Positions 17,090-64,000 of a stretch of DNA of 64,000 nt are shown here, one piece after another (the stretch's first letter is position 1; the number at the start of each line of letters is the position of its first letter). A program made the position numbers and the translations under genes. The stretch comes from Amoebophrya sp. A120. Lineage: Eukaryota; Protista; Dinoflagellata. The stretch lies in NCBI GenBank assembly GCA_905178155.1, contig CAJINV010000010.1:1308451-1372450 (forward strand), read 5' to 3'. The notes beneath the pieces are model-generated. The model saw only the letters and a program-made list of their open reading frames with translations, was not told the DNA's origin and did not search any database.

Positions 17090-18420
17090 GCCAAGGGAGG
17101 AGCTAGCTGCGGGATAGGCTGCGGGCCAGCGCGCTAAGCGGCCGAAAGTTCGGCGGGGTTCTGGGTGGGCGCCTTTCGTGTAGCAAAATAAACGGGGGGG
17201 GCGGCGGTCGCGCAGGCCGGGCAGTGCGTGCGTCGTGGCGCTGGTGTGGCGCCTCGACCCCCGGGGGCTGGTTCGCGCGATCACCGGGAGACGCACGCGC
17301 CCGCCTGCGCTTGTTATTGTTGCCCCGCCGGCGGCGTTGTGCCATGGACCCGGGCGGGCGGGCAGGCGGCAGCCTGGAAAGAGGGCCCGAGCCCTTTGCC
17401 AGAGCCCGAGCCAGGCCATGTGGGCCACGTATGCACCGGGCGCCACGGTAAAGGCGCGCCATGGATGACCCAAGGCCGGACGGGGCCCAAACACTGCCCC
17501 ACCCCCCGCCCTCAGGGCATCCCTGGGCGCACCGGCCTCCGCGCCGAGCCTGGCTGGTGGCGGACGCCGCCGGGCCGCCCTTCTTTGCCAAAGTGCAGGC
17601 CCTGGCTCGTTGTGCAGCGGCGGCGCCGCGTGCGCCCGCGCTAGGCTGCGCCCGCCCCGGGGAGAATCGCCCGAAGGGCCTTCGCGCGGGGCCGGGGGGA
17701 GCATGGCGCGGGCGGCGGGCGAATGGGCGGGGGGCCCGTGGAAGGATGCCTCTTGCGTCCAGCCCCTTCGTCGATGAGGCTCGCCCCGCCGGGAAGCCGT
17801 CGGCCCGCGCAGTGCCCCGCCCCAATACATAGCTAGATGCTCACTGGCGGGGCCGGGCCGCCCCGCGCCTTGCAGGCCGGCGCGGCCGCCGCTTGGCCCC
17901 CCTGCCGACAGGCCGAAGGCCCGCCCGGGCCGCGGTCGCCCAATCGCTTCCCGCCGCCGCCGCGGGGCGGTGGCTTTCGTGGTGTCTTCGGTCGGATGGG
18001 CCGGGCCGGCACCGCGGCCGTAGCGCTGCCGGGGCGCCCGCGTCGCTGCCCAGGTGCCCAGGATCTCCCTTGCCTCGCCCCTGCCCCGGGCCGGCTTGGG
18101 GGCTGGCAGGCAGAGGAGGGAGACTGACCCACCCGGCCGGGTTCCTCGGTTTGATTGGTGGGTGGGCCAGTGCCTATTGTTCTATTTGGCGCGTCGCGAA
18201 GCGCGTGTGGCTGGTGCCATCCGTGTGCGTTGTTAGTTGCAGCGGCCCTACTCGCGTTGACGCTCGCAATGGGTAGCCCCTTGCCGCCGGGCAGGCTCTT
18301 GCAATATTATATTTAGAGAAGGAACTCCAACTCGCCTGCCAGGATGGCCTCGGTGGTCGATGGTAGGTGGCGGCCGCGTAGTGGCTCATTGGGCGACCCG
18401 CCCGAGGTGTTCACCCCGTC
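17090..18420. other. GC-rich non-coding intergenic island
   Basis: GC content jump; no recognisable protein; boundaries approximate. Confidence 0.55.
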
Positions 18421-19632
18421 CGTGATACCGAACCTCGATGCCCGTTCTGTTTGCGAAGCTTTCTTTGTAGTTTTGTTTCGCAATTCTTTCTCTTGGTTTT
18501 GGCGTTGCGTCATCCATGGTTTTGTATCTGTGGAATGCCCGACCTCGACATGGTCTTCCCCGGGATCTCTAAATCGGCGCTATGGCGTATTAATTTTAGC
18601 CGGCAAATGATAGCCAGGCCCCGCGATTTCAATTGTATAGCAAGAACTGTCCTCGCACTAAGGACACGCAGCTCCTTGTGTTGTAGATTGAGAGATGAAA
18701 GCGGCACTTAAAAAACTCAAATTCTTCTTCTGGCAAATAGAGCGTTCTTGCGTACTAACAAAGATTACCTATCCCAAAGGTGAAGATGAAGGTCGAGTTG
18801 ATGTGCTACAGCGACGGCTATCCTTGAAAGTAGAAAATCGGAGCAAATCGAACTCTCCAGCGACTTCCAGCGTGAGGTTGAGAACTCAGTAAGTGAGAAG
18901 TTTGTCATAGAGCACATTTTGATCCATATCCAGCTCTCAGGCCAAGTTGCTGGATTGTTGCGTAACTACACCTAAACTTCTATTGGACGACGAGTCTCCT
19001 TATGTCTCTGGACGATTGATGCGAGCGTGACGAGTGAAGAGACCACAACACACAAGATGGCCAATTTTTTCAGATGACAGTGGTGCCCGAGCAGGAGTCT
19101 GCGTCCGAGACCCGAAAAAAAGTGCTTTGCAGCTAGTAGCACTGGTCCTCGTGGTGCCAGAAGTACCAAGAGTAATTATAACACGCTGACCTACAATAAC
19201 CTCGAAGAACATCAAGCAGTAGACAACTCGAGAAGGACTACCACACTTTCTCGCACTTGACGACGAGGAAAGCAAACGCAACCGCAACCGGCACAGATTC
19301 ACACTCAGGGCTGTCCCAATAAAACAAACTACAAACCACGCACTTGTTGCGTCGAGCGGACGAGTTCGCGGCAGACAGAGGCTCGTTTGCGTTTCCTGCT
19401 CTGTCTCAACTACATCTCCTGGTCCTCCCGAACCGTCGTTACTGACACAGCAAACGACCCTTGCTTGTTTTGTCACGACGACATTGGGATCTTGTCTTCA
19501 ATACGGCGGATTCAAAAGAGCACCTCCTCCTTCCCGACAACACAACAAAAGCGTTAGCTTCACATTGTCAGTAGAACACCAGACCCAGCAGAGGGACAAG
19601 CACCCAGGAGTAACAAAAACCAGCCCTCCCAA

Positions 19633-22916: not shown

Positions 22917-23569
22917 CAAGTTCTTGAGCGGGGAGGAGGAGGTGGTGTTCATAATCGCGGCAAACTACCCGGCGGCTGGGATAGAGCGCACGGTGGTGAT
23001 GGTGCTCCTGTGGGATCATGTTGAGTAGAGGAGCCCCCGGGGGTCATTTTCCGTGGTAGAAGTGCTACGCCTACTGAAAGCCGAGGCTAGTGGAAGGGGG
23101 CTGTTTATTGCTCCATCTTGCGGTAGGGGAGAGTCCCTGATCGTTTTTTGTGACAAGGAGCTGAAGAAGTAGAATGATGAGTGATCGAGAAGGGACTGGT
23201 GGATCGATGATTAGCGATCAACGCGACTGATCATGAAAACTCTACCTAGTGGCATCGTGCTCAGCAGGCGAAGAATAGTCAGTGCAAGCTTCTACGATAG
23301 TCGTGAATGTTGGTAGAACTGCGATTGCGGCTTGATGCTGTGTGTAGGAGCTCGAATCAACCACGACGGTCCGGACGCTACATTGAATCACTTCTACAGC
23401 CACTCAAAGGCGATAGTTTTTTCGTTGTGCTACACGTACAAGGGAGAGCTAAAGCAACAAGAACACGCTGTAGAAACGCAAATCGCTATGGCTGACTTGG
23501 AAGCCTGTGCCATCGAAGCCGTTGCTGTGGTCGTCTGATGTTCTGCCACTTACCTTGCTGGCGCTTTAC

Positions 23570-25000
23570 CATCTGATGCGCAGTGCGAGCTACTCCTACC
23601 ATCATCCGACGTCTCAGGGAGTAGGCCAGGGCGACACGTTCCGCCCGCGCCCGCAAGTGCAGCAGGGCGCGCGGCCTTCGGGCATCATGGGCCGACCGGA
23701 TCCAAGACCCGCCTACAGAGCGCGGCGGCAGTCCAGGCCGGGGCAAAAAGAGCGGGGGCGCCGTTCGCCATGTCGCGGGGCGCAAGCTAGTAGCCATGGC
23801 CAAGCGCTGTGGCCGCCTCGCCCAGCTGCTGAAGCTGGTGGCGATCCCCTTGGCCCGCGTGCTACACTTGCATCAGGCGGCCCGGCCGCATTCGCGCCCA
23901 AGGCCCTTCGCGTTTCCCCTCGGCCCGACTTAGCCGCCGACAGGAATCCGCGACGCGGGGTCCGGGGGCCGGCCTGCGGGTGCTTTGGCGCGCGCTTGGC
24001 TTTTTTTTGGCCGGCGTGCGTGGCGGATGGCGCGCGCCCCCAGTGCAGGCGGCGAAAGTGTCCTTCGAGGCGGGGGAGAAAGCCATGGCGATGAACGTAA
24101 GGCGGGCCCCTTTATTGGGCGGCGCCGGTCGTGTCGTTTCTCCCTCCGGCCGGCGCGCGGGCTTGGGCCTTTGGAGGTGGCGCGGAAAGGAGCGGCCGGG
24201 GCCCCGGGGCAGTGGCGGCGAAGGCAGGGGGGAACCCCTATCCAGCTGACGAGTGCCGCCCTGGGTCGGGGGCAGTTGGCCGCGTCTGAGAAGAGTGACG
24301 GGCCGCCGCCCGCCTTGCCCATGCCGCCCCCCGGCCAACCGATCAAGATCTACTGCAACCACGCGGCGCCCGCCTTGCTTTCTGCCCGCCCGGCATTCTA
24401 AGCAACGCATGGCCGGCCCGCCGGCCCCTCGCTCGCTCTGGGTCGGCCGGCGCGGCTTGCGCTGCCTGCCTGTTTGGGTTTTGCCAATTGCCACCAAGGC
24501 CGGGGCCGCGCTTCGCTTCGGAGTCCGTGAATCCGCTCCCCTTGGGGCATTTCGCGGGCCCTGCTTGCCCGCCCGCCGTGGTTGCAGCTTCTGGGGGCGT
24601 TGATTGTGGCGTTGGGTTTTCTGTGCTGCCGCCGGCTAGCCCCGCCCTTTGGCACGGACGGCGGCGCGCCGGTGCGCCTTGCCCACCATTTGCATGCGCA
24701 GGCCGCGGGCGCCGGCTTTGTTGGCAAGCGTTGGGCGGCGCAGCTCCTCGGCCCGAATGTTGGCGCCGCCCGCCCCCCGGTTTCGCTGCTCTCGCAATGC
24801 CTATGGCCGCACTCTTCCTTCGTTCCACCCTGCTTGCCGCGGCACCAGATAGAACCGCAGCGGGGGGGGGGGGGGCGAGCTACGGAAGCCGGCACGCCGG
24901 CAGGGCCGGAGTTCGCTTGCCCCTAGCGCGCAGCGCTAGCCCGAGCAAGGGGCTTAAAAGAATATACAAGAAAGCGCGTGCACGACGCGAGTGGTGGCGG
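23570..25000. other. GC-rich non-coding intergenic island
   Basis: GC content jump; no recognisable protein; boundaries approximate. Confidence 0.55.
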
Positions 25001-25346
25001 TGTTCCTTTGCGTTGGGCATTTCAGGCCATGACGCAGGGAGTGTGAGTGTGTCTGTTCTTCTCCGATATAAACCATCCAGAGCTCATCTCTGCCTTTCGT
25101 CACAATATTTGCACAGCGTTTTTTGCGTTTGCGTCGTGTCGCCAGCTTTTTCTTCTTGGTTGTCGGTCCTTGCTGTGAGGTTCAGTTTTTTTCTCATGCT
25201 GATGCTGACGCAGCTCCAACTCCCTGTCCTGCCTGTGTATCTACCGCGACCGAGTGAAGCAAGCTAGCAATTAGATAGGAAATCAGAGCTGTTTAGTTCG
25301 CAAGCGAGGCACAACCGTAATAACCTAACAAGCACCCCTCTCCAAA

Positions 25347-36613: not shown

Positions 36614-39600
36614 ATGATGGAAAGAGAACGAATTTTTACGCGAAAAGCGCTGACCGGCCTCTTCCTCCTCCGGTTTCTTGCGGTCCACGAAATAGTTTCT
36701 CCCAGTGCAGCTACGGCAGCTGCCTCGGCAAGTGGAAAGAAAACAACCACTGATGAAGAGACTGGCGGAACAAGTAGAACCAAACGGAAATGGGACGAAG
36801 AAGCTGAAGTAGATCCACCTTACGCAGCAAGAACTTCAACTTCTGACGAGCAGCATCATTATCATACCGAATTCCAATTTTTACCAACTATCTCTAGTGC
36901 AGCGGCTCCTGCGGTGGGGGAACCCGCACCGGCACCATGGTTTTTTGATCAGCCTGATTATCGCGGCCGGTTAGGTAGCTGTAACAACTTCCACTACGTC
37001 GAAAAAGGAGCGACTGATTTTTTGCAGCAAGAAGCCCCTGCGCAGTTCCTGCAAGCCGAGCAACCGCCCCAGCGTGGAAGACCCTCATCTGATGTCTCGA
37101 CGACATTTTTGTACCAAAGAACACGACCAGTGCAGCAGCTGGAGCTGCCCAGCAGCAGTAGCTCAAGCTCTAGCTGCGCTCTCTCGACGACGCGAATAAA
37201 GGAAGATCCACCGCGGCCAGCATCTCACCTTCATCATCCTTATTTGAGCCGTGGACAACATAATTCCACTTCTACGGGGGGGACGAGGTCCTTGTCGGGG
37301 ACGACATCGACGTCGTCCCCCGGGACCACCATGAGCTTCCTAGCTGGAGGTTTTGAACAAAGCACGTTAGGCATGGGTCCCAGCGTTGAAGTTGTTCATG
37401 ATCTACAGTGCGATTTAGACTCTGACACCAAGAGAAACTACCGAGATCATATATTACTGCTGCCAGCGACATCAACTACGGAAGCTTCGTCCACGAGGCC
37501 GGGCGGAGAAGGAGAAGTTTCGGAGACAGTAGGAGGATATTCTAGCGGGAGTGGTAGTTTAGCTACTCTGCTGCATAATCAGGGGATCTACAACATTCTT
37601 GGTGGTGAAAATAATGCGAGGCAGATGAACACGACGACTTTGCGCGGCGAACATCACGGTGTAAAACGATCCGCACTTGTTCTGAAGAGTTGCATTCGTA
37701 AAAATCGTAGCTCCGGCGCTCGAAGCTCCGTTGACTGCATTGGCGGCGAAACTTCGCTCGCTGCGACACCCTTGAAGATGTCGACGTCCCAGCACAAGGA
37801 AGTGGTAGGCGAAGAAGTAGATGACTTATCTACTGCAGGAACAAGAATGCGAGTAAGAACTACTGACCCGCACCACGACCACGAGCAGAGCCGCGCTGAC
37901 CTAGGGTCAAAAGTACTCAAAATCGCTGGGATTTTTTTTGAATTAAAAAATTTTTTTTCCAATGATTCCATACCCGGAGCAGTGGCCGTCCGAGGAAGTT
38001 GAGAGCCGACGGTGGGGAGTGCAGTGGCATATGGTTTAGAGCGGGGGCGAATTCGTCTTGAAGAGTGGGTTTGGGGCTACTGCCTCGCAGCCGGCGCAAA
38101 GAAACTGTAACAGGAGAAAAGCCGGCACACTGTTCAGGGCTTGAGCCTGGCCACTACAAAACAACACCAGCCTCGCCGGGCGAAGCCGCTGGGCCTGGCC
38201 TGAAACGGCCCGGAGTTTGGCTACTGTCTGCGCTGCGGCGTGTTTCCAGGCCGCGCCATACTACAAGGCGCGCCAGTGGAGTTTTTGTGTCAGATCTCTC
38301 TGCTGCGCGTCTGCATGAAAAGAACGTTGCGACGGTGCCACACGACAGGGCCGCCGGCTTTCGTCCGCGCCAGCCCTCACTCGCGGTCCCAGTTTGGGAC
38401 TGGCGCAGCGAAATTGCCTGTACTCCGCGGGGGGGCAAGAGCTGTTTTTCGTGTGTTGTAGATTGTTCCTTTTTTTTGTTCCGTCTGGGTCTACTACTTC
38501 GCCGCCCGATGGTATACCCGACGCGGGCTTGCAAATCTCCGCTGACGCCGGATTGCAAATCTTCGCTGTCCGAGTTCTCATCTCCGCGCCGATCCCCTGT
38601 TCGGATCCCCGGTTCTGATCCATTTTCTATTTGAAATTGGATCAGAACAGGGGATCAGAACAGGGGATCAAAACAAGGGATCAGAACAGGGGATCAGAAC
38701 AGGGGATCAGAACAGGGGACCCGAACAGGGGATCCGGAACCGGCTTGGGAAACGGACATCAAAATAGCACATTTGTGTCGCGGTTTCGGATTTGGTTTTT
38801 TTGCAGCTTGCTGGCCAGCCGCGGTGCCTGGCCTGGCTGATTCTGGCCCGGGGGCCTTCTGCTCGGGCTTCTCGTGTTTTGGAAATTGTCAGCAATCTGC
38901 CATAGCAATAGCGGCGAATCTGGTCGCAGGGGTCATGTTGCTGAAACATGTGCGCCAGTGCCGGCACGCTTTACATACGGGCGCTGCGGCAGCTCGCCGC
39001 CGACCGCATGCGGCGGCTTTTTCCAAAAGGCGTTTGCGGACTTGCGTCGGGCTTGATGCTTTTGAATATGAGTGAAGAGAAGTTGCGTGAAGAGCTTTGC
39101 ATTGCATAGGACAGGGTGGGAGGGTGGTTTGTGTGTGATGATCAGAGCTGACACATGTTGGCAACTAGGCCTCACCCAAGTGCTTTCTTGCTCTTCGTCC
39201 GAGAGCGAAGACGAGCACAAACTCCGCCGGGCATTCTCATGGCTCGGCGCTAACCCTCCGCTTCAGCCACCGAGCAATCTTTCTTTCCGTCTCGGCGCGC
39301 TTGCCGCCTCAAAAAAATTTCAAAAATAAAAAAATCCCAGCGTTTTTGAACGTTTTTGAACACTGGTCATGCGCTAGGGGCCTGCCCAACTTGAGAACTA
39401 CTGACCCGCGCCACGACCACGAGCAGAGCCGCGCTGGCTCGCCATCAAGTAGCCAAGAGAACTATAGTACTTGCAGCAACTAGAGCCAAACCTGGAACCG
39501 AACAAGGCTCAAAGAAGGCTACTTGCTTTATTTCTGAAATCTGCATGCTACTGTGGTGCAGACTAGGCTCAAACCTGGGCCAAGAAGGATCAAATCTCTA

Positions 39601-41728
39601 GAGATGACCTTTTTTTTCCTAATTTTCCTTGGTGAATCACCACGCTCCTGCGAAAAAAGATTGATAACGATTAGGGCGAACGCCTCTAGAGCTCAAAAAC
39701 CTGTAGAGCTCAATCGCTAGAGCTGAATCTCTACAGCTGTTTGGTGATGTTCTAGAGCCTAAGCTCTACAGCTTCCGCCTATAGCGAGCACCTACAGCTC
39801 GACAGCCAAAAGGCTTTTTTATCGTTTCTCACACTAATCAGCTGCAGCTACCCGGCCGGTCTGTTCCTGTTGCCCCTGGTGCTTGCCTAGGAAGCCCAAC
39901 ACCGGGAGCACAGAAGCAACGAACCAAACGCGGTGGGGCTGGGGCTAATTCATCAGAAACAACCAGCCGCATGGCTGTTGCCTCCATGCTGTGAGGCGTG
40001 GCCGCCGGTGCCGAGAGTAAAACTCAAAAACATAAACAGCACTGGCAGGCGTGCCTCTTACTTAGATTTGTTGGGAGGCAACCACCAGCAGCTGCGTGGT
40101 CCTGCTGCTTGCTACAGGGTATCGGGCCAAGTAGCCTCGCCGAAGGGCAGCCCGGATGGAAAAGCATGCACACAACAAGCCCAAGACCATACGCAAGAGA
40201 AACTTTCGGCGCACAGCGGCAGGCTGATGCGAAGGCAACAGATGTGAGCCGCCGCAGAGGTTACGTCCGTGCAGCGGCGCAGGTGCCTTCGGCAGGTTGT
40301 AGCGTTTTCTTTCCACGCCGGGCGGCCACCTGCTACGACGAGTACCAACGCGACGGCCAGGAGCCGCACCTAAAAACAAAAACGCACTTGCGGGCCGCAA
40401 AGGCTCGCTGGCGTTCTCGCCCTAGCTGCCTGCGCTTGCTGGGTAGCTGAAGTAGAAGGAGGGGAGGCCGCCCGGCGCGGGTCTGCTTTCCATTTCCTAG
40501 AAGGCAGACGGCACAACTACGGTGAGGCGCACCAAGCGGAAGCGCGTGCCCTTATCGACCTCTACCATACCTGACCCGGCTTTTGGCACTACAGAGGCCG
40601 GACGGATCTGGCGCGCTAGGCGTTGGGCTGCAGTTGGTGGGCCGGTCGCTCTGCTGGCCGCCTTTTCTTATTCATTTTATGTTCCTGGCTACGCGTGCTC
40701 TTCCTTTTTGTTTTTGTACTTTGTTGCCATCAAGCTGTTTGCCATCATCGCGCGGCGTTAGTGCGTCGGCTGCCCTTCCGGGAACAGTCAGCCCCAAAGA
40801 AAGCACGCTCCAGCTCTTCGGCCAAGCCTCTTCGAACTGTTTCTAGTTGCTGCAGTAGCAGTACTGCTTTTCTATTGTTATGCGCAGATCCCCGCACCAC
40901 GACCACGAGCAGAGCCGCGCTGGCTCGCCATCAAGTACTGCTTCTACTTGTGCCTCTAGAAGGTCCTCTTCCTCACCACGAGAAAAAAAGGTGAGGTTCA
41001 ACGTAGAAGAAGAAGTACAGGATCACCTTCCCGCCGAAGCAGATGAATCACAAACTTGTGCTGCCGGAGCTCCTGCAACAGTTGCGAAAATTAACAGCTG
41101 CGGAAGTAGAACTTTTCCATCCTACGTAGTTTCGTCTTCCTCTTCTTCTGCTTCTAGCAGTTGGGCTGGCGTACTGGCAGGTAGTGGAAGTGAACAAGGT
41201 AGTACTAGTGGAACAGGTGGAGAGAATGAGAACAACCAAGAAACAACCATGTCGCTGTCGAGGATGCAACAAGCATCGCCAACATCATCCGTGTCGTTTC
41301 TTTCTTCGTCCAGAAGTAGTACTACTAAGACCAATACTTCTTCTACTCCTGCTGCTTTTTCCTATTCTGGTTTCCCGCTAAGTTGTCCAGACGTCGATCA
41401 TGCGCGGATCGTTCAAGAAGAAAGCAACCAACGCCTCCTTCTGGCTTCTTTGCAGGATATCACCGTGAAAAATCCAGCTTATGTGAGACCGGAAAAGACC
41501 ATGGCGGAGCGACGCAGGAAGGCGGAGGAAACAGCGGAACAGGAGAAAAAACGGAACGCGATGCTGCAGCAACTCCAGCAGCAGGAATCAGAGGCACAGG
41601 AACACCAATCGTCCCATCCGGTTCTGTCGCCGATGGGAATGCTTCTGCATCCCATGATTGAGATGAAAGATCAGGACCTTTTTTTGAAAGCTGCGCTGGA
41701 AATGGACGGACCAATGCATGGTGCGTGA
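36614..41728 (+). CDS. Orphan Ser/Thr-rich protein with hydrophobic N-terminus, interrupted by a ~3-kb double insertion (possibly a pseudogene)
   Basis: ORFs 36614-38002 and 40880-41728 both encode PHHDHEQSRA; removing 37899-40922 joins them in frame. Confidence 0.55.
37899..39393. mobile_element. Non-coding 1.5-kb insert with subterminal inverted repeats, flanked by a 43-bp direct repeat
   Basis: IR CGCTGGGATTTTTTT (~37924) / AAAAAAATCCCAGCG (~39328); direct repeat at 37856-37898 and 39394-39436. Confidence 0.7.
38590..38740. repeat. ~14-bp GATCAGAACAGGGG tandem array with inverted copies to its left
   Basis: About 7 copies at 38639-38735; reverse-complement copies at ~38591-38621. Confidence 0.85.
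39452..40890. mobile_element. Non-coding 1.4-kb insert flanked by a 47-bp direct repeat
   Basis: 13-bp IR TGCAGCAACTAGA at 39472-39484 and 40842-40854; direct repeat at 39405-39451 and 40891-40937. Confidence 0.65.
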
Positions 41729-42659
41729 TACTATTTTTTCAGGAACAAGAACGAGCCGCGCAGGAGATGGTGACCACACATCAGATAGTACTACATCGTC
41801 TGGAGGCAGTGGAAGTGCCAGTTGCTGTTGCAGCTACATTGTGATAATTTTCGGAGTTACAGGAGGGTGAGGTTCTCGTATCCATTGAAGATTATAATCT
41901 AAAAAGTCAATGAGTTTATTGGGAGGACTCATCAAGAAGAAGAACTGAAGATAGACCGATGGACAGCATTGCTGTCAGTTTGCAGGACTATCCATCGTGG
42001 TTGATAGAAATAAAAGAAAGCTCCCGGCTTCCAGAATGGATTTAATAAGAAAGGATTTCATATTTTCAATTTCAATGACATTGACATGTAAAGCACGACC
42101 ACGACGAACATCACCTCCAATACACCGTAAAAAAAAAAAAAAATGCTAGTCGTCTACTACGTACGATGGAGCTCCTGACGGAAGTGTTGTCATTTTTGTA
42201 ATGTGTTGTTTGGTCATCCTCCAGTTCCAGTTGTCTCGCAGTTCCTCCTTTCCTATTTCGATCATTCCGCACGTAGATCACGAGGCAAACTAAACAGCGA
42301 AAAAAGTTGTATCATCTACTTCGGTCAAATCTAGGGCTTGCTGCATTTTTTTATTTGTGGTACTTACATGACAGATGTTGAGATCAGAACAATTACAATA
42401 GTCTTGTACCAACTATAGATTGTTGACAAACTGAACCGTGCGAAAGAGGACGAAGCGGAGGATCTAGGAAGTAGATTCAAACTACGTCAAGTAGACAACA
42501 CCATCGCAGTATGATGGACGTGCTGCCAAAAGATCCATACTAAACCACTTACATACCATTTTTTTTTTTCTGAAGAAGAAGGGACATTTTGCTGGGAAGA
42601 TGAAGATGAAGATGGAGCTAGACTTCTACCGACCAGCTGCATGGCCGACGACCTTATAA

Positions 42660-43627
42660 TTACAGCACTTTATAGGTTAGGGGCTAGGGACCTTTAGGGA
42701 CCCTTAGGGGCTTAGGGACCTGAGGTCCAGAAAGCAGCCTAAAACGAACTCTAAAACGCATGGTATGCTCGCAAAATGGCCGACCATTTTACCCCCCCCC
42801 CCATTTGGGCCCCCCCAGAGTGCTTCGGCGGCTTCGGGGCTTCGGGGTCCCTTGCCGTCACTTGCCAACAAGTGTGGGCTCTTGATGGTCGAATATAGTT
42901 CGTTAGCCGATAGCGGATGCCACGGACGAGTGGCATCTAGGGGGCCAAAAATTCCCGCATGCGTGTCCTCCACGCGGGCGGCCCCTGGGGCGCTGCTGTC
43001 GTTATCCATCAGGGAAAGTTGAAGCGGGCACTTCGATTTTCCCTCGATGAGGGAAAGTTGAAATGGCCAACTCAAATTTTCTTCGATGAGGGAAAGTTGA
43101 ACTTCAATTTTCCTTCGATGATGGAAAGTTGAAGTGCCCATTTCAAATTTCCTTCGGTCATGGAAAGTTGAAGCGGCCACTTCGAATTTCCTTCGATGAG
43201 GGAAAGTTGCAGCGGCCATTTCAAATTTCCTTCGATGGGGGAAGGTTGAAGCGGTCGCGTCGATTTTCCTTCGATGAGGGAAATGCGAAGTGGCCACTTC
43301 AAATTTCCTTCGAAGAGGGACATTTGAAGTGGCCATCTTAAATTTCCTTGCTTCGATGAGGGAAAGTTGAAATGGCAACTGCGAACTTCCTTTGATGAGG
43401 GAGCGTTGAAGTTAGTGGGCACTTCGATTTTCCTTCGATGGGGGAAAGTTGAAGGGGCCATTTCAAATTTCCTTCGATGGGGGAAAGTTGAAGTGGCCGC
43501 TTCAAATGTCCTTCGATGTGCGGGCGCGCGGTGCTCGTTTGCCTTCGAATCGATGCAACGCCATTGACTGCGTATGAAGTGAGTGAATGCGCGCGCGCAG
43601 CGCGCGCGCGAAATTTTTTTTGGTTCT
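42660..43627. mobile_element. ~1-kb insert with a telomere-like left end and a 39-bp satellite, lying between direct repeats
   Basis: Direct repeat ATGAAGATGGAGCTAGACTTCTACCGACCAGCTGCAT at 42606 and 43628. Confidence 0.55.
43007..43518. repeat. 39-bp palindromic minisatellite, about 13 copies
   Basis: Unit CGATGAGGGAAAGTTGAAGTGGCCACTTCAAATTTCCTT; appears as a 13-aa repeat in ORF 42704-43378. Confidence 0.9.
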
Positions 43628-43664
43628 ATGAAGATGGAGCTAGACTTCTACCGACCAGCTGCAT

Positions 43665-44937
43665 TTACGGTAGCGAAAACTGTCCCCACTACCCCGGTTT
43701 TCCCCAAATCAAAATTTTTTTTTTGAAGTGATGGAATAGCGTTGCCGCCGGCTCCACAACCTAGCCGGTCGGTGTCCGCCATTGGCTCTCCTTCGCAGAT
43801 GGCCTCTGTGGCTGCTATGTAAGCAGAGAAGCTAGCAGGACAACGACGTGGCCAAGGCACTGCACAACCGAACAGGGCGCCAAGATGTGTCAAGGTGTGT
43901 AGCTGCTTCGGTGCTGGCTGCGTGTGGGCTACTGCAACGCGGGACCGCCCCGGTGGCCTTGTTTGTGTGGTCGCGGGCGCGGCGCTGGGGAAGAATGCGT
44001 TGCGCAGTTCCCCCGGACGAAGCGCCCGGACTCTGTTAACGACAATTGAAGAGACCGGGCGCCCAGTCTCCGTTGAAGAGCCCACCGGGGCGCGGCGCTG
44101 CCCTCGGGGGCTGGGCGCCTGGAAGCCCCGCGCGGGCCCGCCCGCGGCCTCGCCCGGCCATGACCCTGGCGAAGGCCCAAATGCCCGCCGGGCCGCGAAG
44201 GCCGCGCCCAGGTTCTGGGACGTCGGCCTCTCCGTTTCCCTGGAGGTCGTGCATGCGTACCTTTTCGGGGGGCTTTCCGGTGCTCGTTTTGATGGCCGAA
44301 AGCCCGTATACAGGTGCTTAGGACCGAAATCCCCAGCATACGTTTTTTTTCTTGCCAGCGTGTGCGAGCATGTACCCAGGGAAACGGTTCCGGCAAGTCC
44401 AAGCTGGAGAAGACAGGCCTTGTCAAATAAGGGGCTTCGGATCCAGCCTGGGCGGCGGGAGCCTGGGCGGACCCTGGTCCTTTTCCTCAAAAACCGGGCC
44501 CGCCCCCTGGCCGCCCTCGGGGCGGCAAAGTGGTTAGGCTTTAGGACTCCGGGCGCAGCGGGTCCTGCGCGACAGAGCTGCTGGCGTATGCGCGCCCCTT
44601 GTTACGCGCAGCGCCAATCTTAGAGAGGCGCAAGGGGGTCCGCCGCGGAGAAAGTCGGCGAGTTGCTCTGCCATGAAGGGTAGGCAGGCAGCTGCGCCCG
44701 GAGTCCGGATCGCAGTGGCCTGTCCTGCGTTGCGCGCATATTTGCCGAGGGGCCGCGAGCGTAATCATGGCGCGCCGTTAGCTAGATAATATCTTTCGTT
44801 ACATTAAGCAGCACACCGAGGGGGGCGGGCGTCTCGGTCTGGCCGTTCGCGGCGTAGGCCGCCAACGCAGGGCCCACCCTGCTCACAGTTGAATCGAAAA
44901 AAAAATTTTGCTTTTGGGGAAAACCGGGGTATATGGG
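43665..44937. mobile_element. GC-rich non-autonomous TIR element between 37-bp direct repeats
   Basis: TIR TACCCCGGTTTTCCCCAAA(T)CAAAATTTTT at ~43690 and inverted at ~44897-44931; direct repeat at 43628-43664 and 44939-44975. Confidence 0.75.
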
Positions 44938-47823
44938 GATGAAGATGGAGCTAGACTTCTACCGACCAGCTGCATGGCCGACGAGCTCATAAGCCAGTAG
45001 CAGCATTGCAGCGAGCGTGGGCGTATTTTTCGCAACGGATGAAGATCTCAGAATCAGATTAGCATTAGTGCCGCGTGGGGAACAAGACAGTTCGGATCAT
45101 GTTATCGTCCAGATTTTTGCGTCGATTTTTGATATCTTCGCGACACTTTTCACATTTGTACTAGATGTGCAAAATGTCGCAGAAAACGAGCAGCGCGGGT
45201 CGGAAGAGCAGAAAACTGATCTCATTATTCATTTGCAGCGCTAGGCTACAGCGCAGTAGCGAAATGTAAAAAGCAAAAAACGGGCTGGCAGCTGGTGGAT
45301 CCGTTCAACGCGCTATTTTTCTATTTGCTTGTAGTTGAGCTATGTGGTCTACCGCTTCTTCATCGACCACGACGAGGATCCTACTACATTTATTCCAGAT
45401 AGAATTTTGCGGGAAGCGAAATTTCATCGTTGTGACACAACAAAACCTGATTGACAGAGACGCTGCCCGTGAGCAGGTTCTTCTGAATAAAGTAGGACCG
45501 CGGCATTGGACAAGAAAGGCAATATTCAGAAACTGAAAGAATATAGTGTAGTAGAAAACTGACTCTCACAATTTCAACATCGGACACAGACCCTGTCTGA
45601 CTAAGAGATAGAACAATTCATCCACTACTTTTGATAGGGGTGATTGCTACGATGAGCGTACGGATACTTCACGCAGGAGTCTTATGTATAGAAAAATACG
45701 TAAATAAGAACCAGAATTATAGACAAGAGCACAAAGTCTATACAAAGCTACGATAACAACGGTAGTCGTAGTGAAGTATGACCCTTTGTCAGCATTGAAC
45801 TTGACCTCACGTCAGAAAGTCGTGGAATGTAAAGGATAGATATGAGGCCAGTTCGGATAGTCTAGGCTTTCATCAATGAAAATTTGTCGTGATAATTTTC
45901 AGCAAACGCACAAGAAGCAAAAGCCGAAGTAAGTAATCCAGGGTGAACGGCGATAAAAAAAGGTAGAAGGGCTTCTGGCGCTAGTCGTGTTTACCACGTA
46001 AGCACATATTGTAAAAAAGCCCAAGTAGTCCTCCTCTACCCGCGAGTAGCCTGTTGGACGACTGTATTTCGGTCTAGCTCTTTGTCTTTCCTCGATTTCT
46101 TGGACGACTTATTTTTAAGATGGTAAAACGAAAAACGGACCACAAAGAAGACAATTTTTGTTTTTCGAAAGCGGACTAGATACCAAGTTTGTGGTAGTAG
46201 CTTGAGAAGCATCAATCTTTACACTTTTTCTTGAGCAGGAATGATGATGACAGCTCAGATGATGTGCTGGTGACTTTTTCTGAGTAGCAACATTTATTTC
46301 CTTTGTTTAGCGGTTGTAAGTAGATAGACTTTCATTATGGTTTTGTGACGACGTAGATATTCAAAAAAGCGGACGACGACGAGACCTGAATGCCTTATAC
46401 GACATCTTTCACACATCATAGTCATACTTTACAACGACACGCTGCTACGCAGCTGCCTGGCAGAGCGCAGCTTCAATAGAGAGCGGCAAAAAATTCTCAC
46501 CAGGTGGAGGTCACCGCAATACCTATTGCCAGAGCTAGACGACCAGCGCTGCCTTCCTCAAGTTGTGAAGGTGGGCGCGAGCAGCTAGTTGTCGTGGTAG
46601 AAGTACTACTATAACGGTTTCTATTATTGGAAAAGCAGGTGCGCGCGCGGGTGCGCTAGCTGTACGAAATCCAAAACTAGCGAGAAATATATCGAAGCGT
46701 TTTATTCAGCACATTCTCGTACATACCTACCACTGAGAACACTTTGACGTGCTGGCATAGCTGCACGATAACAGACCACACGGACCACGCGACCTGTATG
46801 TTTACAAGTCCTGCTTTGCGGCCGAAGATCAAGATTTAAAAAAAAAGAACGATGTAAAAAACGAAGACCTAACAACAGCGAGAACCTGCTTCGAACCAAG
46901 GTAAGTAACAAGATTCGAAATTTATCGTTTCTAGTTCTAGGCGGCAGATGAAGCGGCCGAGTTTTATTTTAGCCATTCAACATCAACATTCATAGTACAC
47001 ACCGACACTCAACATTCATAGTACACACCTACAATTCGACACTCACAACTCGCTTGTTCTGGGCAGCAGAGTCTATCTGTCGTGTCAAACAAGATCTAGA
47101 GGATCTGTTCTTCGCGGCAGATATTGACTTTGCGTGCTAAGGCAAAGCAATAGTACCATTCATATTTTAATACCCAACACAACCCGACCCAACCCAACCC
47201 CAAGAGGCACGCAGCCCACCTCGCCCAAGTAGTAGGTACCTCAATTTTTCAAAACTACCCGATACAACTACGCGTACGCATTGATTCTTTGACTATCACA
47301 AGCTGTTTCTAAATTCATATATACTTTTTTTTTTCTACTTTCACACACCAAAACCGCTCCGGCTGATTACTATTTAATTATCTGCGCTTTAAGAAAGCAC
47401 CCTTCAACATCAAGGGCCTTTTCCTTTATCTTCATCTTTGTTTCGCCTTTGATCAAACACCAGCCGCAAAGGCAGCAGACCTTGGCATTCGGTCAACATT
47501 GTTTTTATTTTCGAAAATTTCTTCTAACAAATTTCATTTTTTTTTTCGACCTGATTTTTAAGGATCCACTTTTTTTTTCAACCAAGTAGAGCGTTGGCTG
47601 TACCACGTTCGAAAATTGTGTATGATCCAGCCCTTCTTGATGATGATCTAGATTTTGCCTGTCTTCTCGACTGTTTCGATTATTATCTTTGAATAACCTG
47701 TCAAGGCTGTAGTACTCATCCAATACCAAAAATTTTCAATATAGGTAACCCGTTCTCTCCGAAAAAATACGGATACGGGGTGGAAGGTTCTTGTTTCCAG
47801 TTTCGCTGTACGAATTTGTGTTC

Positions 47824-53700: not shown

Positions 53701-54667
53701 GAAGCTGAAGTAGTTGTAACTGGTCGTAGTTTTCTTCAGTATACGACGTTTGCCCCGGTCGACAAGCAGGACGTAGTCCCTTCCGCGAGGATCCACGACA
53801 ACCCCTCTCTAGTAGTACTTGAAAGCAGCTTCGCCGGCGGCGGTGTTCGTAAGAACGGATTAGAAGCAGAACAAGATGATGACCGCGTCGATGATCCGCA
53901 GGAGGTGAATTACACCGCAGCGTTTGGTGGTCTTGGTGCCGAGGAGTTATTTTCCTTGCCCCCAGCATTTCCGTATCCGTGTGATGCCTACCTGCTATGC
54001 GCAATTACATCGATTAAAGATGTCAATCTGGGTCTGAAAAAAGATGATTTGCATGCATTTGTTGAACGATAAGTTGTGTCCGTTCTTCCGTTCTTTCCTT
54101 GCCAAATAATGCTATGTTTCTTCCTCGTGTACTAATCTTCTCCGCGAGGCAAAAAGTAAGACTCATCAAACGCATATGGATATAATGCATGTTTGAAAAA
54201 AATAAACGCGCGTCGTTTTCGTTTCTTCAAAAGAAGTCCCAGGTATGTTGCTTTTCCTAAGACTACATACCGCGGGGGGTGATCGTGCTGGACAGTGCCG
54301 TGGCTGTTTCATGAGCGAAAAGTTGCGGCCGCTTGTAGTTCTCGGATGTTGCTTTGTCTTTTTTGCTTGATTTGTTTTCGTCATCATGCGGCAGCCTCCA
54401 GGCAGCATGATCGTTATCATCAAATTAAATTATATTTAGGTACGATGGCAATTTTCTGATGAACTTTTCTAAGCTGTCGAACTACTGAAAAAGCGTCTAC
54501 AAAACTAAGCTACCTATAATGAGGCTACTTCGCGCTAAGTGCGCGATCTCTAAAAGCAGGAGAGCTAGTCACTATCTTCTGAAAGGGAGGCTTCTTGTTT
54601 TTGCAACATTTCACTTTGACAAGTATCTTCTCCATATGCCGTTCCTTCTTTAACCTTACAGTGGTAA

Positions 54668-55195
54668 TGTTAGTGGACTTGAGAACACTCGCACACACTT
54701 ACACACGTTTGCTCCACTGAGCTCGTTATCAACAGCAGTTCAATGAATTCTCTCAATTGCAAGAAAGCAAGCAAGTGACGCAAGTCTCTTGCTACGTTAC
54801 ATCCTGTAGGTTCAATTCATCCAAATTCATCACATTCATATGGACCAAACCTGGTCAGAGTCAAGTGGCCAAACAGCAAGGGAGTCCACTCCTCAACCTG
54901 CTCAGATTGGTGCTCGACCCTGGTGGGAGTCAAGTCCCCCAGGGTTACCATTCTGAACGTCTGGACCGAGCTGAGTCCATTCATTTCACTACGATCCTGA
55001 TGGCTTTGCCTTCGTAGTATTTGGGGGATTCGCGGAACATGGTGAAGAGTTTCCTTTAGGATCTAGATAGATTCTGACCATTTCCCTAAGGATCTAGCTA
55101 GTTCAGGTCATTCAGAGCTGTCATTTCATTGAGGAACAGGCGTCATTTGGGGCGATCGTGTTACGCGTGTGTGGGATCGATTTCCATGACCAACA
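54668..55195 (-). repeat. 3' LTR
   Basis: About 6 mismatches by eye to 60369-60896. Confidence 0.95.
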
Positions 55196-55288
55196 CCCCT
55201 CCTCAATCGCTGCGGCGGTGGTGCTAACCTGGATAACGTCCTACCGCACTCCCCTCCTGAACGCGCTGTGGTAAACTAGCTACCCTCT

Positions 55289-58200
55289 CTAGAAACCAAA
55301 ATAAATCGAATAAGTATAGCCTACTTTAGCCTTGCCCTTGTGATTCCCCTCTATAAACGTTTCTAAATCATCCTCATCGTCAGAGGAGTCACAAATAAAA
55401 GACTTAGGGTCGGGGTTATCAATATGGTGCAAGAGTAAGCGTCTCTGCGGCGCACTACACTCGAGCTTCGTAAGACCGTCTGCCTTCATTAGGTAGGTCG
55501 GGCAGAACATGATCTGGCTCGCTGCGTCTCTCACGCGGAGATATCGCAGTGCGTAGCGCCTCGATTTCGGTTTGTTGTCTGTGCTCTTAGCTGTAGTTGT
55601 CGCGGACTGGTTGCCGATCCACAATATGGCATCACCCAGGGAGGGAGATAAGCCATTCTGCTTTTCCACCATGACAGTGGGTAGAGGTTTGAAGAACTCT
55701 GTTTGTAAAGTCATTTTGCTCGCTAAGCACAATAGTGTCGGAAGCAGCTATATACTCCGCCTCCGCCGTGGAGTACGCCCTCACGGTCTGCCGGTTGCTA
55801 CGCCAACAGATCGGGAAGCCGCGGAAGTACATAACGCTACCACTAGTGCTTCGCATGGTCTTGCAGCAGTTCGCAAAACTAGCATCCGAAAACAGATTCA
55901 CATCAGGCAAGTCTCTCCCTTCGGGCAGTAGCTTGCTGTAGATTCTGTTAAATTCTTCCTCAATTTCCGGACTATACGACAGACCCTGCTCTTTCGTTGT
56001 CAGTAGATACTCCAGAATCTTCTTACAGGCGTTTACGACAGGCCGAGTCGCCGGCTTGCCCACATATCTGGCGACAGTGGCAACCGGGACAACAATGTCT
56101 ACCCTGCAGGTGGTTGCAACCCACTGCAGAGAGCCAGCGACCTCTCGAAGGGGAAAACCTTCAATGACTTTAGCTCCTTCAACTTCTTTAGCGAGTTCAG
56201 ACTCGTCGAGGTTTGGCGAGTGGACCGGCTTGCCCGCTTCTGAGACGTGGAATTTCTTACAAATCTTGGATATGTACTCTGTCATCACGATCCTAGCGGT
56301 TCGTAGATTCCAGTTGTAGTACACTATTGACCCGAGGAAGTCGAACTTCTTGGACACAGAGTTAAACTCCGGAACAAGCTCGACGTCGATCATGCGCCCC
56401 TTGACGTGGTGCAAGATCTCCGCAAGTTTTCCAGCCAACTCGGACCCAGTCGGAGGACCTGTGATAAGATTATCGTCGACATACGCTGCCAACTTCAGAA
56501 ACTTCCCAGGGTATTCCAAGCTCGGTTTCTTCCACAGACCTGGCGCAGAGGGACAGGGTTCCCAGCCTAGCTTGGTCAGTACTTCCTCATACTTCTTATG
56601 CCAGAGCCTGGGGGCGTCTTTCAAGCCGTAAAGCGCTTTCTTGAGCTTGGCGATCTCCACGCCGTGCTTTTTCGCCCAGATGGGTGGCAAGCGGCAGAAG
56701 GCATCGCGATCAAGTAAGGCATTGAGAAACGCACTATCAAGGTCGAGCGGGGTCACATCGTCACCGTCTGCGGCTGCAGCGGCTAGAAGTAACCTGTTAG
56801 CGGCATGGGACACAACAGGAGCGAAAGTGTCCAGCTCGCCCGAACGATCAAGATTACCGAGTGCTACTGCTCGCGCTTTCTTCGTACCGTCACGCTTCTC
56901 GGTAAGAAGGATAGCAATAGGCAAAACCTGCTTTGCGGTCGCTAGCTCCTCGTCAGTAGCTGGCTCCCACACTTTATAGGCTTCAAGTCTACAATCTTCC
57001 TTGTTGGTTGCTGCGTTCCATTCGACTGAGTCTTTGCAACGAGCAGGATCCAACTTGGCCGATGTAGTCAAGTAACACTGGACGTCAAGGAATTCCTCGC
57101 CTTCCTCTCTATCATCCTGTGCTGTTATTGCTGCGGCAAAGGCACTAGCGTCCTTTCTCAATTCTGCGAGCTCTTTCTTAGTACGTCTCGCGCGCTTTGT
57201 CTTGTCCTTTCTCCCCTTGGGACGGCCACGACCTCGCGGCTTGGAGTTGCGGTTGCCAGCCACAATCCTTGCCGGAGACGGACTCGTCTTTCTTGGACTA
57301 GATAAGCTGCTGTGAGTGGGGTGATCGTCCAGATTCCCCTCCTCAGGTTTAACACCTTCAGGCTCGGGATGTATCTGGCCCGGATCATCTTCCCTATCCA
57401 AACTTTCAACCACCAACGTCTCTTCAGGACCGTCAGGCTGCCTACCAGTGTGCTCCGAGACATCCACCCCCAGCCGGTGCACAGCCCTTTTGATCAGACC
57501 GAAACACGGGAGAGATGGCGCACACGACGCTCCACTAGGTAGGGCCTCGATTGCGTCACACTCGACAGAGATACCCTTGGAGTTAGGAGCTAGGTCTTCA
57601 ATATTCTTCACGAGGTACTCCTCACGGAACTTGACGTCGATGGTAGAACACTCCATCCAACGATGTCCCGCGGCGGACCGGCCGTCCGTGACATACGTCC
57701 CAACCCGCCAGCCCGAAGACTTAGGACAAAGGCCGAGAAATACACCACGACGAAATGGCGCGGCCAGCTTTGGAGCAACCACCTCTACTCCCCCCTCAGG
57801 AGCTTCATGAGCTTCGCCTTTCTTGACTTGTTCACGAAAATAAACGAGACAACCAAAACGCCTTAGCATCCTTGTGCCAACTTTTGAGCTGTTTCTTCCA
57901 GTTCTCTCATCCAAAATCTCTGCAGGAGTCTTTCCGTCGTACTCAGGCACTTTGCTATACTTATGCGGAAGGCGGTCCCAGCATGCTGCAGCGTACTCGA
58001 CCGAGTAGCACCACAGACGCTTGCCCACGTTCACCAACATCGCACGCACAGCGCCGAATATGGTCCGCGTAAAGCGTTCGCAGGTTCCGTTCTGCTCTGG
58101 GTTGTGCTCTGGGTTGTAGGGAACCGCAGGAGCATCACCGACCCGCAGCGATTGCATGACCTTGGTCATGGATTCACTGCCCAGAGCTGGCTCATTGTCC

Positions 58201-59123
58201 CAACGGACGAACCATGCCGCTTTGTCCTCGAGGGTCAAAGCGTAGCTCTGGCGAATGCCTTTTGTTACTTCTTCCAAAACCTCAACGCAGTCACTTTTCA
58301 GCTTAAGAGGGACACAGAGACACTTCTTGACGGCATCACAGATGACCACAAGCACGCAGGTGCGTGACCGAATCGATACAGGTTTAATACCTACCGCGAA
58401 ATCCGTCGCTAGTAGTTTCAATGGTTCAGGTTTGTAGTTACTAGTGTCGCGCTCTTTTGCGTGAGAGCTTCTTGCGCCCTTCGCTTTGTCGCATTCGGGA
58501 CACTGGACACTAAGACCATCTACATGAAAGCGCCCGAATCTTCTATGTTGTTCTAGACGCGTAAGATGACAGCTAGCAATACTTTCTTCGATTGTAATGC
58601 ATGCAATATCCTCCGCAGTGTCTCTAGTCGCCTGACCCCGGAGGCCCATCACGAAAAGATCACACCCAAGGACTGGGAGGGTCAACCTCTCGTGGTTCTT
58701 GATTGGTAGCATCTGACCGGATTCCCTGTTGACGAGAGAACCGCCAGAGCTGTTGAAGTTCAGATCCCACCCACGATCACTGAGATTGTCCTCACCGAGC
58801 CACGGAAGAATGCGATCAATATCTCTTGGCAAATGTTTAAAATAGACGCCATAGGGCAAACCTAGAGCGTTTTCCTTCAGTTTTCCTACAAAGCCATCAC
58901 GAGCCCCGGCCGTGCCGTTGATGCGACAGACGTTGCTCGAGATGTCAATAAAATCCGATTTGTGTCTAGATAAATACTTGTTTGCACATGAATCGACCAA
59001 GCTCACTTCGTCCTTGGTCTGTGCAGTAAAACAGCTAGAAGAATCTACATCAGAATCCCCTAAATTCTCGAAATTTAGCACACAACTACCATGCTCCGAG
59101 ATATAAACTCCTCCGTGATCTGG
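55289..59123 (-). pseudogene. pol: copia pol (protease, integrase, RT, RNase H) with a frameshift in RNase H near 55700
   Basis: LVDSCA, HRRFG..CPEC, LATDF/WDNE/QNGTCER, KKALYGLKDAPRLW, YVDD, FSDASFA, STAEAEY; the RNase H end (NQSA...KADGLTK) is in a different frame, ORF 55289-55732. Confidence 0.88.
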
Positions 59124-60311
59124 TCAGGCTGGTCCTTGCCAGACCCAACCGCCCTGCTTTCCACCGGCTCCTTGCCCTTGATTCTGGTTGTTCATCTGGT
59201 TCTGGTTCACCGGCGGACACCACTGCGGCTGCTGGTTTCCCCAGGCACCACCCCACTGACCTTTCCCTTGATTGTTAGGATTCCAGCGGCAGCGGTCCGC
59301 CTTATGGTTTTCCTTGCCACAGATCCAGCATTTGGGTTTGGTCACAGTGTTGTAGGGAGTGCTCTGGTTCCGACCAGTCTTGCCACCACCTTTCTGGCCA
59401 CTTCCACCCTTAGTGTTAGACTTCGGGGGCAGGCCATGGGCAGCCAGGACACTCGCTTCGGTCTGCTTGCGTAGTTTGGCTTTCATGCGTTTCAAGGCTT
59501 TCGCCGAGAACACCTTGCCAGAAGCAGCATTCTGACCATCATCAGCGGAGTCCGGCTCCTCGTCATCGTCGTCATTTTTCTGACGCTTATTTCCCTTCTT
59601 GTTCTTCTTCGACTTCTCCTCAACGACCGGGAAGGCCTTGCCGAAGGACGGGTTCGCAATCTTGTGCGACCCCTCCTTGACCAACTGCGCGAGCTTCTTC
59701 TCGAGACGGTTCCCGATCTCCTGCAAGGTGATGCGATCGGACTCGTCCACGCAGCGGTCGATGGTCTGGCGGAAGGCCGACGCAAACATCTTGGGCAACT
59801 TGTCCAGAATGTTCTTGACATGCTGATCTTCAGCCGGACGCCCGGGCTCCGGGACGTAGACACTCGGCGCCATCTCCATCAAGTCGTGGATCTGGGCCAG
59901 GAACGTCGGAGCATCCTTCGGCGCGTCGCGGTTGTCGAAATGCATGGCGTCGATCGAGGAGGTCTTGATCTGCTGCTGGTCACGGGATGCAACATTGAAG
60001 CGACCCACATCACGAACACGCATGAACAACTGCGCAGCGTCGTCGTTGATGTAGTGCTGACTGTTGACCCACGTGGACACGGACCCGGTGCGCGACTTGT
60101 AGATGGCATCCCTCAGGTCGCGCCACTTCTCCCGGATCGCATTATTGGCAGTATTGTTCGCCTGCGGAATCCCCGGAGGGTTACCAGCAAGACGATTATC
60201 CCAATACTCCTGGAGCCCGAGGCGAGAAACCTCGTTCGTGACCCCGCGATGCCAGGCGCGCCAGTCCTGCGCGCTGGACAGCTTCGCCGTCAATTTCGCC
60301 TCTTGGCCCAT
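59124..60311 (-). CDS. gag: copia Gag with CCHC zinc knuckle
   Basis: CWICGKENHKADRC; ATG at 60311. Confidence 0.88.
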   Translation of the reverse strand: MGQEAKLTAKLSSAQDWRAWHRGVTNEVSRLGLQEYWDNRLAGNPPGIPQANNTANNAIREKWRDLRDAIYKSRTGSVSTWVNSQHYINDDAAQLFMRVRDVGRFNVASRDQQQIKTSSIDAMHFDNRDAPKDAPTFLAQIHDLMEMAPSVYVPEPGRPAEDQHVKNILDKLPKMFASAFRQTIDRCVDESDRITLQEIGNRLEKKLAQLVKEGSHKIANPSFGKAFPVVEEKSKKNKKGNKRQKNDDDDEEPDSADDGQNAASGKVFSAKALKRMKAKLRKQTEASVLAAHGLPPKSNTKGGSGQKGGGKTGRNQSTPYNTVTKPKCWICGKENHKADRCRWNPNNQGKGQWGGAWGNQQPQWCPPVNQNQMNNQNQGQGAGGKQGGWVWQGPA

Positions 60312-60368
60312 CTTCAATCTAACTTATCTGACTAGAAGAGCCGGCTTGAGTCTCAAGGCGTAGCGTAG

Positions 60369-63807: not shown

Positions 63808-64000
63808 AATAGCAAGCAATAGCAAGCCTTTTTTCTTTTCCTTTGCTTTTGGCTCTTTGCTATTGCTTGCTTGCTATTGCTTGCTGGCTATTGCTTGCTT
63901 GCTATTTCTTGCTTGCTATTGCTTGCTTGCCATTGCTTGCTTGCTATTGTTTGCTGGCTATTGCTTGCTTGCTATTGCTTGCTTGCTATTGCTTGCTTGC
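63808..64000. repeat. (GCTATTGCTTGCTT)n simple repeat running off the window end
   Basis: Array from ~63857; short inverted copy AATAGCAAGCAATAGCAAG at 63808-63826. Confidence 0.9.

Follow-up and report, generated by a model that had tools for sequence, protein, structure and literature searches.

How does one short piece of protein-coding sequence come to stand three times in a row, parted by two large non-coding inserts, and what kind of element would leave such a trace? The question is raised by positions 37856..40937 of a 64,000-nucleotide stretch of the genome of the marine parasitic dinoflagellate Amoebophrya sp. A120 (assembly GCA_905178155.1, contig CAJINV010000010.1, positions 1,308,451 to 1,372,450 of the forward strand), hereafter the window, to which all coordinates refer. 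A first-pass annotation, made from the letters, had proposed mobile inserts, or a break-repair capture process, that make very long target duplications, as well as repeated targeting of the same site. Mobile, repeated inserts with long duplications are supported by the duplications themselves, by read depth and by diverged contigs, and the latter pattern is seen twice in the window. All four inserts concerned carry long locus-specific duplications, at two sites with different targets. We read them as representatives of four unrelated, repeated, non-coding families, likely non-autonomous DNA transposons, that were inserted enzymatically between nicks 37-47 bases apart, and we give this reading a probability of about 0.5.

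The first site lies in an orphan low-complexity gene on the forward strand, whose product corresponds at 100% to a single database record labelled Amoebophrya sp. A120 (public protein P0001, 734 amino acids). Exon 1 occupies 36614..37900, as judged from the protein match and from RNA-like contigs that reach 37896 in the sequencing runs X3 and X4. Near its end stands the first copy of the host target (37856..37898), which recurs at 39394-39436 as a pair of 43 base pairs (bp); a second pair, of 47 bp, links 39405-39451 to the third copy at 40891..40937. The pairs, found by direct-repeat scan and alignment, have a single mismatch each, at a common base, position 39410, which is G in the middle copy and A in the outer copies. 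For comparison, the chance of an exact 26-mer pair no more than 4 kb apart in the window is bounded at ~4e-7. Between the copies lie insert 1 (37899..39393, 1495 bp; delimited by repeat, inverted-repeat and depth analyses) and insert 2 (39452..40890, 1439 bp; delimited by inverted-repeat analysis, X1 depth and a second copy in X4), which have no relation to each other in sequence. When both are collapsed, a single open reading frame (ORF) of 696 amino acids from the first methionine results, the remainder of which runs from 40938 to the stop codon at 41728 on the same strand, in agreement with P0001. The first-pass description of a coding sequence triplicated around two inserts of 1.4-1.5 kb therefore stands on the 43- and 47-bp pairs and the measured inserts, as does its restored ORF; that the inserts are unrelated and non-coding is upheld by sequence comparison and a Pfam scan. 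Its copy starts need amendment, in that the 32-mer it quoted really sits at 37867, 39405 and 40891, and 37856 and 39394 begin the 43-bp pair. Searches for homologues of the host protein matched only the A120 record itself, so that no orthologue bearing the peptide once came to light, and no Pfam family was found in the protein. The protein contains the string KKVRF at about 40985-40999, which we take to resemble the PP1-docking RVxF motif.

When the whole window was scanned for direct repeats 300-4000 bp apart, with a match at 17 or more of 20 positions, one further set of long near-perfect copies emerged outside the families of small introners described below; it lies 1.7 kb away at 42605..44984. 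Here the target is a different, intergenic sequence, present at 42605..42651 (copy 1, 46-47 bp; direct-repeat scan, with no long ORF on collapse), 43628..43664 (middle copy, 37 bp; alignment) and 44939..44984 (copy 3, 46 bp, or 47 with the G at 44938, which may match by chance; alignment). No RNA-like cover was seen in X3 at 42209-43141. Two more inserts, unrelated to each other and to those of site 1 by sequence comparison, separate the copies with duplications of 46 and 37 bp: insert 3 (42652..43627, 976 bp; tandem-repeat, inverted-repeat and depth analyses) and insert 4 (43665..44938, 1274 bp; inverted-repeat analysis and an X1 contig at 44247-44967 with depth 46.6). The two duplications have one boundary in common, with the middle copy and the 46-bp duplication starting on one and the same base of the target; their other boundaries differ. 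The order of events at site 2 is forced: insert 3 would have arrived first, and insert 4 would then have entered its right copy, with an unchanged left boundary. At site 1 the boundaries are compatible with either order. All four long-duplication inserts in the window are stacked in pairs, for which a rough estimate gives a chance of about 0.002 per pair of landing within 60 bp in 64 kb, a rate biased by the fact that the window was picked for its oddness. Tandem duplications of 31 and 26 bp that hold no insert also occur, at 11915-11975 and 46983-47033; these could stem from staggered nicks that were filled in without insertion.

An assembly artefact might be suspected, as no single contig crosses the region, yet we consider an artefact scarcely credible. 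Run X1 has a flat depth of 41-44 over coding and intergenic flanks; it is read as DNA and may be the assembly's own sample. Its contigs break off at 37896 and 44967, begin at 44955 and cover 40908-42634, and a 31-mer graph of the assembled sequence predicts all four of these boundaries, whereas an empty-site model predicts one unbroken contig. The breaks match the triplicated model, and as far as these contigs go the structure is therefore not a product of assembly. Moreover, an X4 contig (39127-39440) joins insert 1 to the middle copy with zero mismatch, and the middle copy is set apart by a substitution of its own. In contigs lying within inserts 1 and 4 that show no mismatch, depth is 46-50, so most molecules carry these two inserts. 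Summed X1 depth reaches 105-181 over insert 1, 280-448 over insert 2, 474-1130 over insert 3 (three bins, 42831-43763) and 54-373 over insert 4, that is, about 2.5 to 25 times the flanks for inserts 1-3 and 1.3 to 9 times for insert 4, although read depth is no copy number. Less than 99% likeness is seen in 144 of 238 contigs, and all 40 of the variant rows listed (of 286) fall inside the inserts. Further copies of the inserts exist in the genome. One of insert 2, in an X4 contig, matches the window from 39450, beyond which stands the foreign flank TTTTCGTT (8 letters in a single low-depth contig). A 291-nucleotide (nt) contig from the estuary run X8 is identical to 39104-39394 and so reaches a single base beyond insert 1, at a low depth at which the stop could be chance. 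These contigs suggest that the insert junctions are element ends and that the flanks vary between copies. Exact-pattern scans for other copies returned 0 loci in viral contigs and 0 in metagenome contigs.

The inserts themselves have a recognizable anatomy. Subterminal inverted repeats, reported in the first pass, are clear in insert 1 and weaker in insert 2. In insert 1 the arms lie at about 37897-37955 and 39311-39369 (end-to-end duplex z -5.9), CTAGGG stands at both ends (37901, 39374), and the interior holds 13-bp units in tandem (38639-38734) and a hairpin that begins at 38591. In insert 2 the inverted repeat shows a 13-nt core, and its arms stand in from the left and right ends by ~6 and 17 nt; its duplex z is -3.7 and its alignment score of 27 is above the 95th percentile of shuffles and below their maximum. 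Insert 3 carries TTAGGG-like repeats near its left end, a 39-bp tandem array at 43011-43518 and a strong GC palindrome about 17 nt from its right end. In insert 4 a 45-bp inverted repeat (89%) reaches the very right end and leaves 19 nt outside its left arm (z -6.5). Asymmetric arms, 0-8 nt from one end and 17-34 nt from the opposite end, are therefore found in three of the four inserts; no terminal direct repeat like the CTAGGG of insert 1 was noticed in inserts 2-4. Extra bases lie outside one arm in three inserts, and those of insert 1 are carried unchanged to 39394 by the X8 contig, which suggests a fixed end; matches of the extra terminal bases to nearby DNA were limited to scattered runs of 10-11 nt. 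Other copies of insert 4 lack 43950-44199 (250 bp; joint at depth 200 in X1), and the window copy has an extra internal segment. A Pfam scan of 49 ORFs across the four inserts (9 + 40) gave no match at the curated cut-off, the four weak matches among the 40 short ORFs being below it and not transposition-related, and a search with the insert-2 ORF found no longer relatives. No tRNA gene was found in the inserts by a dedicated search, none of the four has a poly(A) tail, and no insert matched Rfam at the gathering score, the 18 sub-threshold matches being generic hairpins.

At the RNA level, the first-pass suggestion that the inserts are spliced out as giant non-canonical introns is directly supported for insert 1; for insert 2 it is favoured by contig structure, which a reverse-transcription artefact could also produce. 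A joint from 37900 to 39376 is seen in X3, skipping 1475 nt on the forward strand (37901..39375) with CT..CT ends and no shared letters; it stands in one contig, at depth 7.3 as against 21.4 for exon 1, and the same junction is found in P0001. The register of this joint differs from that of the long duplication, so it is not explained by slippage between the copies. The junction is in frame and retains both copies together with 18 nt of the element, a predicted gain of 21 amino acids (717 as against 696). The resulting exon 2 (39376..39451, forward strand) comprises the 18 nt from the right end of insert 1 and the 58-bp middle target copy (39394-39451, with G at 39410), and is represented by a 76-nt contig of depth 44.6. 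By prediction, 37893-37901 form a stem with 39365-39374 that stops one base before the 3' cut. The 6-nt CTAGGG repeat lies 2 nt off the observed junction, and splicing in its register would shift the frame. The notion that the repeats collapse on removal is not sustained where removal is seen directly, since that junction keeps both copies and P0001, with exons to 37900, at 39376-39450 and from 40886, keeps all three. For insert 2, contigs at 40356-40920 and 40400-40920 cross 40886 unbroken, where a model with the annotated second junction predicts a break; X3 depth is 44.6 in exon 2 and 43.7 in exon 3, and 12.2 and 10.5 at the two ends of insert 2; and the four main X4 contigs are reproduced exactly by a model that skips each insert with one copy. 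Contig structure and the X4 model favour in-register removal, and insert 2 would mostly be removed together with one copy, subject to the caveats that graph cleaning can prune short paths and that an identical graph results from RNA that ends at an insert. In one study, template switching at hairpins lying between direct repeats reached up to 70% of cDNA reads (PMC8240250). RNA contigs start inside the right ends of insert 1 (39127/39140) and insert 2 (40356/40400), which may reflect outward promoters or retained intron ends. Insert 2 also supplies an in-frame ATG at 40880, just ahead of copy 3, from which a shorter C-terminal protein could possibly be made.

Of the known elements compared, those from the same organism, going by the protein label, are the introners of Amoebophrya. 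Non-canonical introns of strains A25 and A120 have 3-5-nt direct repeats, in an analysis limited to introns of 40-1000 bp (Farhat et al. 2021, PMC7789003). Duplications in the A120 introner families are 2-11 bp or none in all 58 rows of Dataset S2, where the reach of the method for long duplications is not evident, and CT is a common donor in the large families (Gozashti et al. 2025, PMC12130899). The window itself contains at least 26 small introners of several families (about 130-310 bp, at 865-53225); the longest end direct repeat is 4-7 nt in 26 of 26 candidates, many of which have flush TAT..ATA ends with a 5-bp duplication. Our inserts resemble introners in being repeated and non-coding, with inverted repeats (inserts 1, 2 and 4, not 3), and in the removal of insert 1 from RNA at non-canonical sites without GT-AG; they differ in their 37-47-bp duplications, subterminal asymmetric arms, stacked pairs and length of 1.0-1.5 kb. 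Replitron-1 of Chlamydomonas reinhardtii has 6-bp terminal direct repeats, variable duplications with one fixed end, and a variable 'fuzzy' right end derived from donor flank (Craig 2023, PMC10288648). The variable duplications and, in one insert only, the CTAGGG at both termini recall Replitron-1 and Replitron-N1; unlike Replitron-1, the inserts have no common RG target, and no transposase was found here. Asymmetric subterminal inverted repeats, central tandem repeats (inserts 1 and 3) and a palindrome near one end (insert 3) recall Helentron-type HINE and DINE-1 elements, though no insert has all of these, and the duplications here are long and the targets GC-balanced. IS481EU, a DDE element of parabasalids, makes duplications of 4, 15 or 25 bp, stopping at about 25 bp, and has flush TNT..AYA ends (Kojima and Bao 2023, PMC10045372). 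Our duplications of 37, 46 and 47 bp, near 5 + 10.5n, would extend that ladder; the 43-bp duplication is off it, and neither TNT..AYA nor TA..TA termini occur flush in the first or last 15 bases of the four inserts. Long or variable duplications are also made by the DDE elements IS1549/IS1634 (8-514 bp; PMC2266710), of which IS1634 is prokaryotic. With Dualen-4b and R9 the inserts share long variable duplications of the kind that two separate nicks leave, and they differ in having no reverse-transcriptase remnant, tail or clear 5' truncation. CRE and SLACS elements make duplications of about 22-49 bp, a range for which our searches gave no confirmation. The inserts are assigned to none of these families.

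What, then, could have made the duplications? A locus-specific duplication flanking a repeated element follows from nicks on the two target strands and filling of the gap. On the reading favoured here, an enzyme would nick the target strands 37-47 nt apart, and gap filling at insertion would generate the duplication; a second element would then enter a fresh target copy, yielding the repeat-insert-repeat-insert-repeat order, and the paired ends of the element would probably guide the non-canonical splicing of the host by way of a hairpin. The intermediate would be DNA rather than RNA, because the subterminal arms are paired, tail and tRNA head are lacking, and depth is flat along insert 1. The boundary pattern of site 2 is what a first nick at a constant place and a second at a varying one would produce. 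Three of the four duplication lengths (37, 46 and 47) fall within 1 bp of 36.5 or 47, values of 5 + 10.5n, and 43 does not; with so few lengths, and ends ambiguous by 1-6 nt, the fit is suggestive only. The enzyme could be of the HUH type (Replitron-like) or a long-reach DDE enzyme, and candidate reasons for re-use of a site are a nick at the end of the resident element, a loose target motif and a local hot spot. Some likeness between the two targets was measured, though a weak one (21 of 28 columns; p about 0.01 on one of two strands), and since the cuts fall out of register with it we did not retain a common motif. Tentatively, a further step may be taken: these could be members of a eukaryotic DNA transposon class not yet described, with an enzyme that duplicates 37-47 bp and prefers re-insertion into earlier duplications, even those of other families, so building repeat-spacer-repeat arrays. 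Hairpin-guided splicing would let exonic arrays survive and leave peptide repeats in frame, from which the fast divergence of proteins reported for the lineage could directly arise.

That elements of some kind drove the insertions is highly probable, and this judgement is divided between the DNA elements and non-autonomous retroelements, which are the less likely candidate but by no means a negligible one. In the retroelement case a LINE-type (long interspersed nuclear element) enzyme would act by target-primed reverse transcription, the first nick setting one boundary and a distant second nick the other, which is in keeping with the boundary common to both duplications of site 2. Long variable duplications are typical of non-LTR (long terminal repeat) elements (126 bp for R9, a median of 900 bp for Dualen-4b; PMC9977147), and such retrotransposons are present in A120 (PMC7789003); in insert 1 the left arm seems to have been shortened, and a GCGC-TG likeness appears to link it to the target, while X4, an RNA-like run, contains diverged copies of insert 2. 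All this must be set against inverted repeats at both ends, the lack of a poly(A) or simple-repeat tail and of a tRNA head, the lack of a clear depth excess at one end of insert 1, where X1 depth is roughly flat, and the identical left end of two insert-2 copies.

The remaining rivals dispense with an element-encoded enzyme or replace it by recombination. Break-repair capture, raised in the first pass, supposes that, in 7 kb of fragile DNA, staggered double-strand breaks caught pre-existing repeats, perhaps two together and with the target copied anew, and that the duplications come from repair. It would explain why four unrelated families cluster as two pairs within 7 kb, and the insert-free tandem duplications in the window would suit it; random fragments are expected on this account, yet three of the four inserts have inverted repeats near both junctions and two insert ends coincide with ends in other copies, and we judge it improbable. 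An att-like constant flank, the other alternative then offered, has fared worse. Circular elements recombining at a carried site of 40-50 bp would account for the length of the direct repeats, for re-use of the site and for the weak likeness of the two targets, but no two of the four duplications cover the same interval, and two distinct sequences are involved; the cuts do not line up with the motif common to both targets, the further insert-2 copy has a different flank, and the target at site 1 is in-frame host coding sequence. This reading is largely refuted, and its remaining chance is very slight.

Several observations weigh against non-autonomous DNA transposons as the answer. No transposase partner was found, either among the insert ORFs by Pfam or among relatives of the insert-2 ORF, and the four inserts share no sequence, so that one enzyme for all of them is an assumption. 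Insert 3 has no significant end-to-end inverted repeat (z +1.7), the two duplications of site 1 have no boundary in common, and a fixed first and variable second nick fits target-primed reverse transcription equally well. Among the models for such an enzyme, Replitrons were not found in alveolates, nor anywhere in TSAR outside stramenopiles, in the accessible text of PMC10288648, and HINE and DINE-1 elements make no clear target duplication and use T-rich or TT sites (Thomas et al. 2014, PMC4067079). Among read-derived contigs no other copy was seen with both flanks, and the long duplication is a putative family trait; no empty allele was found, X8, X10 and X11 giving 1-2 short contigs each and the raw-read runs X12 and X13 only 1 and 0 matching reads. 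As for splicing, the 37900|39376 junction appears in X3 and not in X4, one of two A120 RNA-like runs, with a third of the depth of exon 1; neither run shows 39450|40886, the second junction of the annotation; and the in-register signal could equally come from RNA that ends at an insert, or from a reverse transcriptase switching template between direct repeats.

All of this is drawn from four inserts in a single window and one RNA junction seen directly, and its significance should be measured accordingly. The first-pass annotation had implied that duplications of this length are without precedent, which is true to a lesser degree than it supposed, given LINEs, IS1549/IS1634, IS481EU and Replitron-1; the pattern is not a new principle. 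Duplication length serves transposon classification, however, and the longest that we found for eukaryotic inverted-repeat elements in the accessible literature is about 25 bp (IS481EU), while no earlier description of long duplications in Amoebophrya was found in the accessible parts of the open-access literature. A group of elements making 37-47 bp would, if real, point to a different integration chemistry, and pipelines that seek short duplications would miss or mis-bound its members. The locus also couples intron gain to exon duplication, one splice form being predicted to gain a 21-amino-acid near-tandem repeat, and in this way links introners testably to rapid protein change in the A120 parasite. 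Nor can gene models at such sites be trusted, since short-read aligners do not see in-register removal and reverse transcriptase can mimic it.

The window holds further features of interest to the study of mobile DNA in this genome. Two tandem threonyl-tRNA-synthetase-like paralogues, at about 3900-9730 and 10980-16380 (Pfam tRNA_SAD, tRNA-synt_2b and HGTP_anticodon), carry introners at different positions and so offer a natural empty-versus-filled comparison. GC-rich (0.67-0.73) intergenic blocks at about 2000-3300, 17000-18500 and 23500-25200 are possibly other repeats; neither in these three nor in a fourth block, next to the LTR element, did any long direct or inverted repeat at the flanks rise above shuffles. 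The LTR element is a Copia-type retrotransposon on the minus strand at 54664-60896, with 532-bp LTRs that are 98.7% alike and an RVT_2 match. About 300 bp from its LTR, at 61202-61217, stands an exact 16-nt match to what we take to be the dinoflagellate spliced-leader end, which may mark a retroposed message. Lastly, a 14-bp tandem array occupies 63857-64000 and continues past the end of the window.

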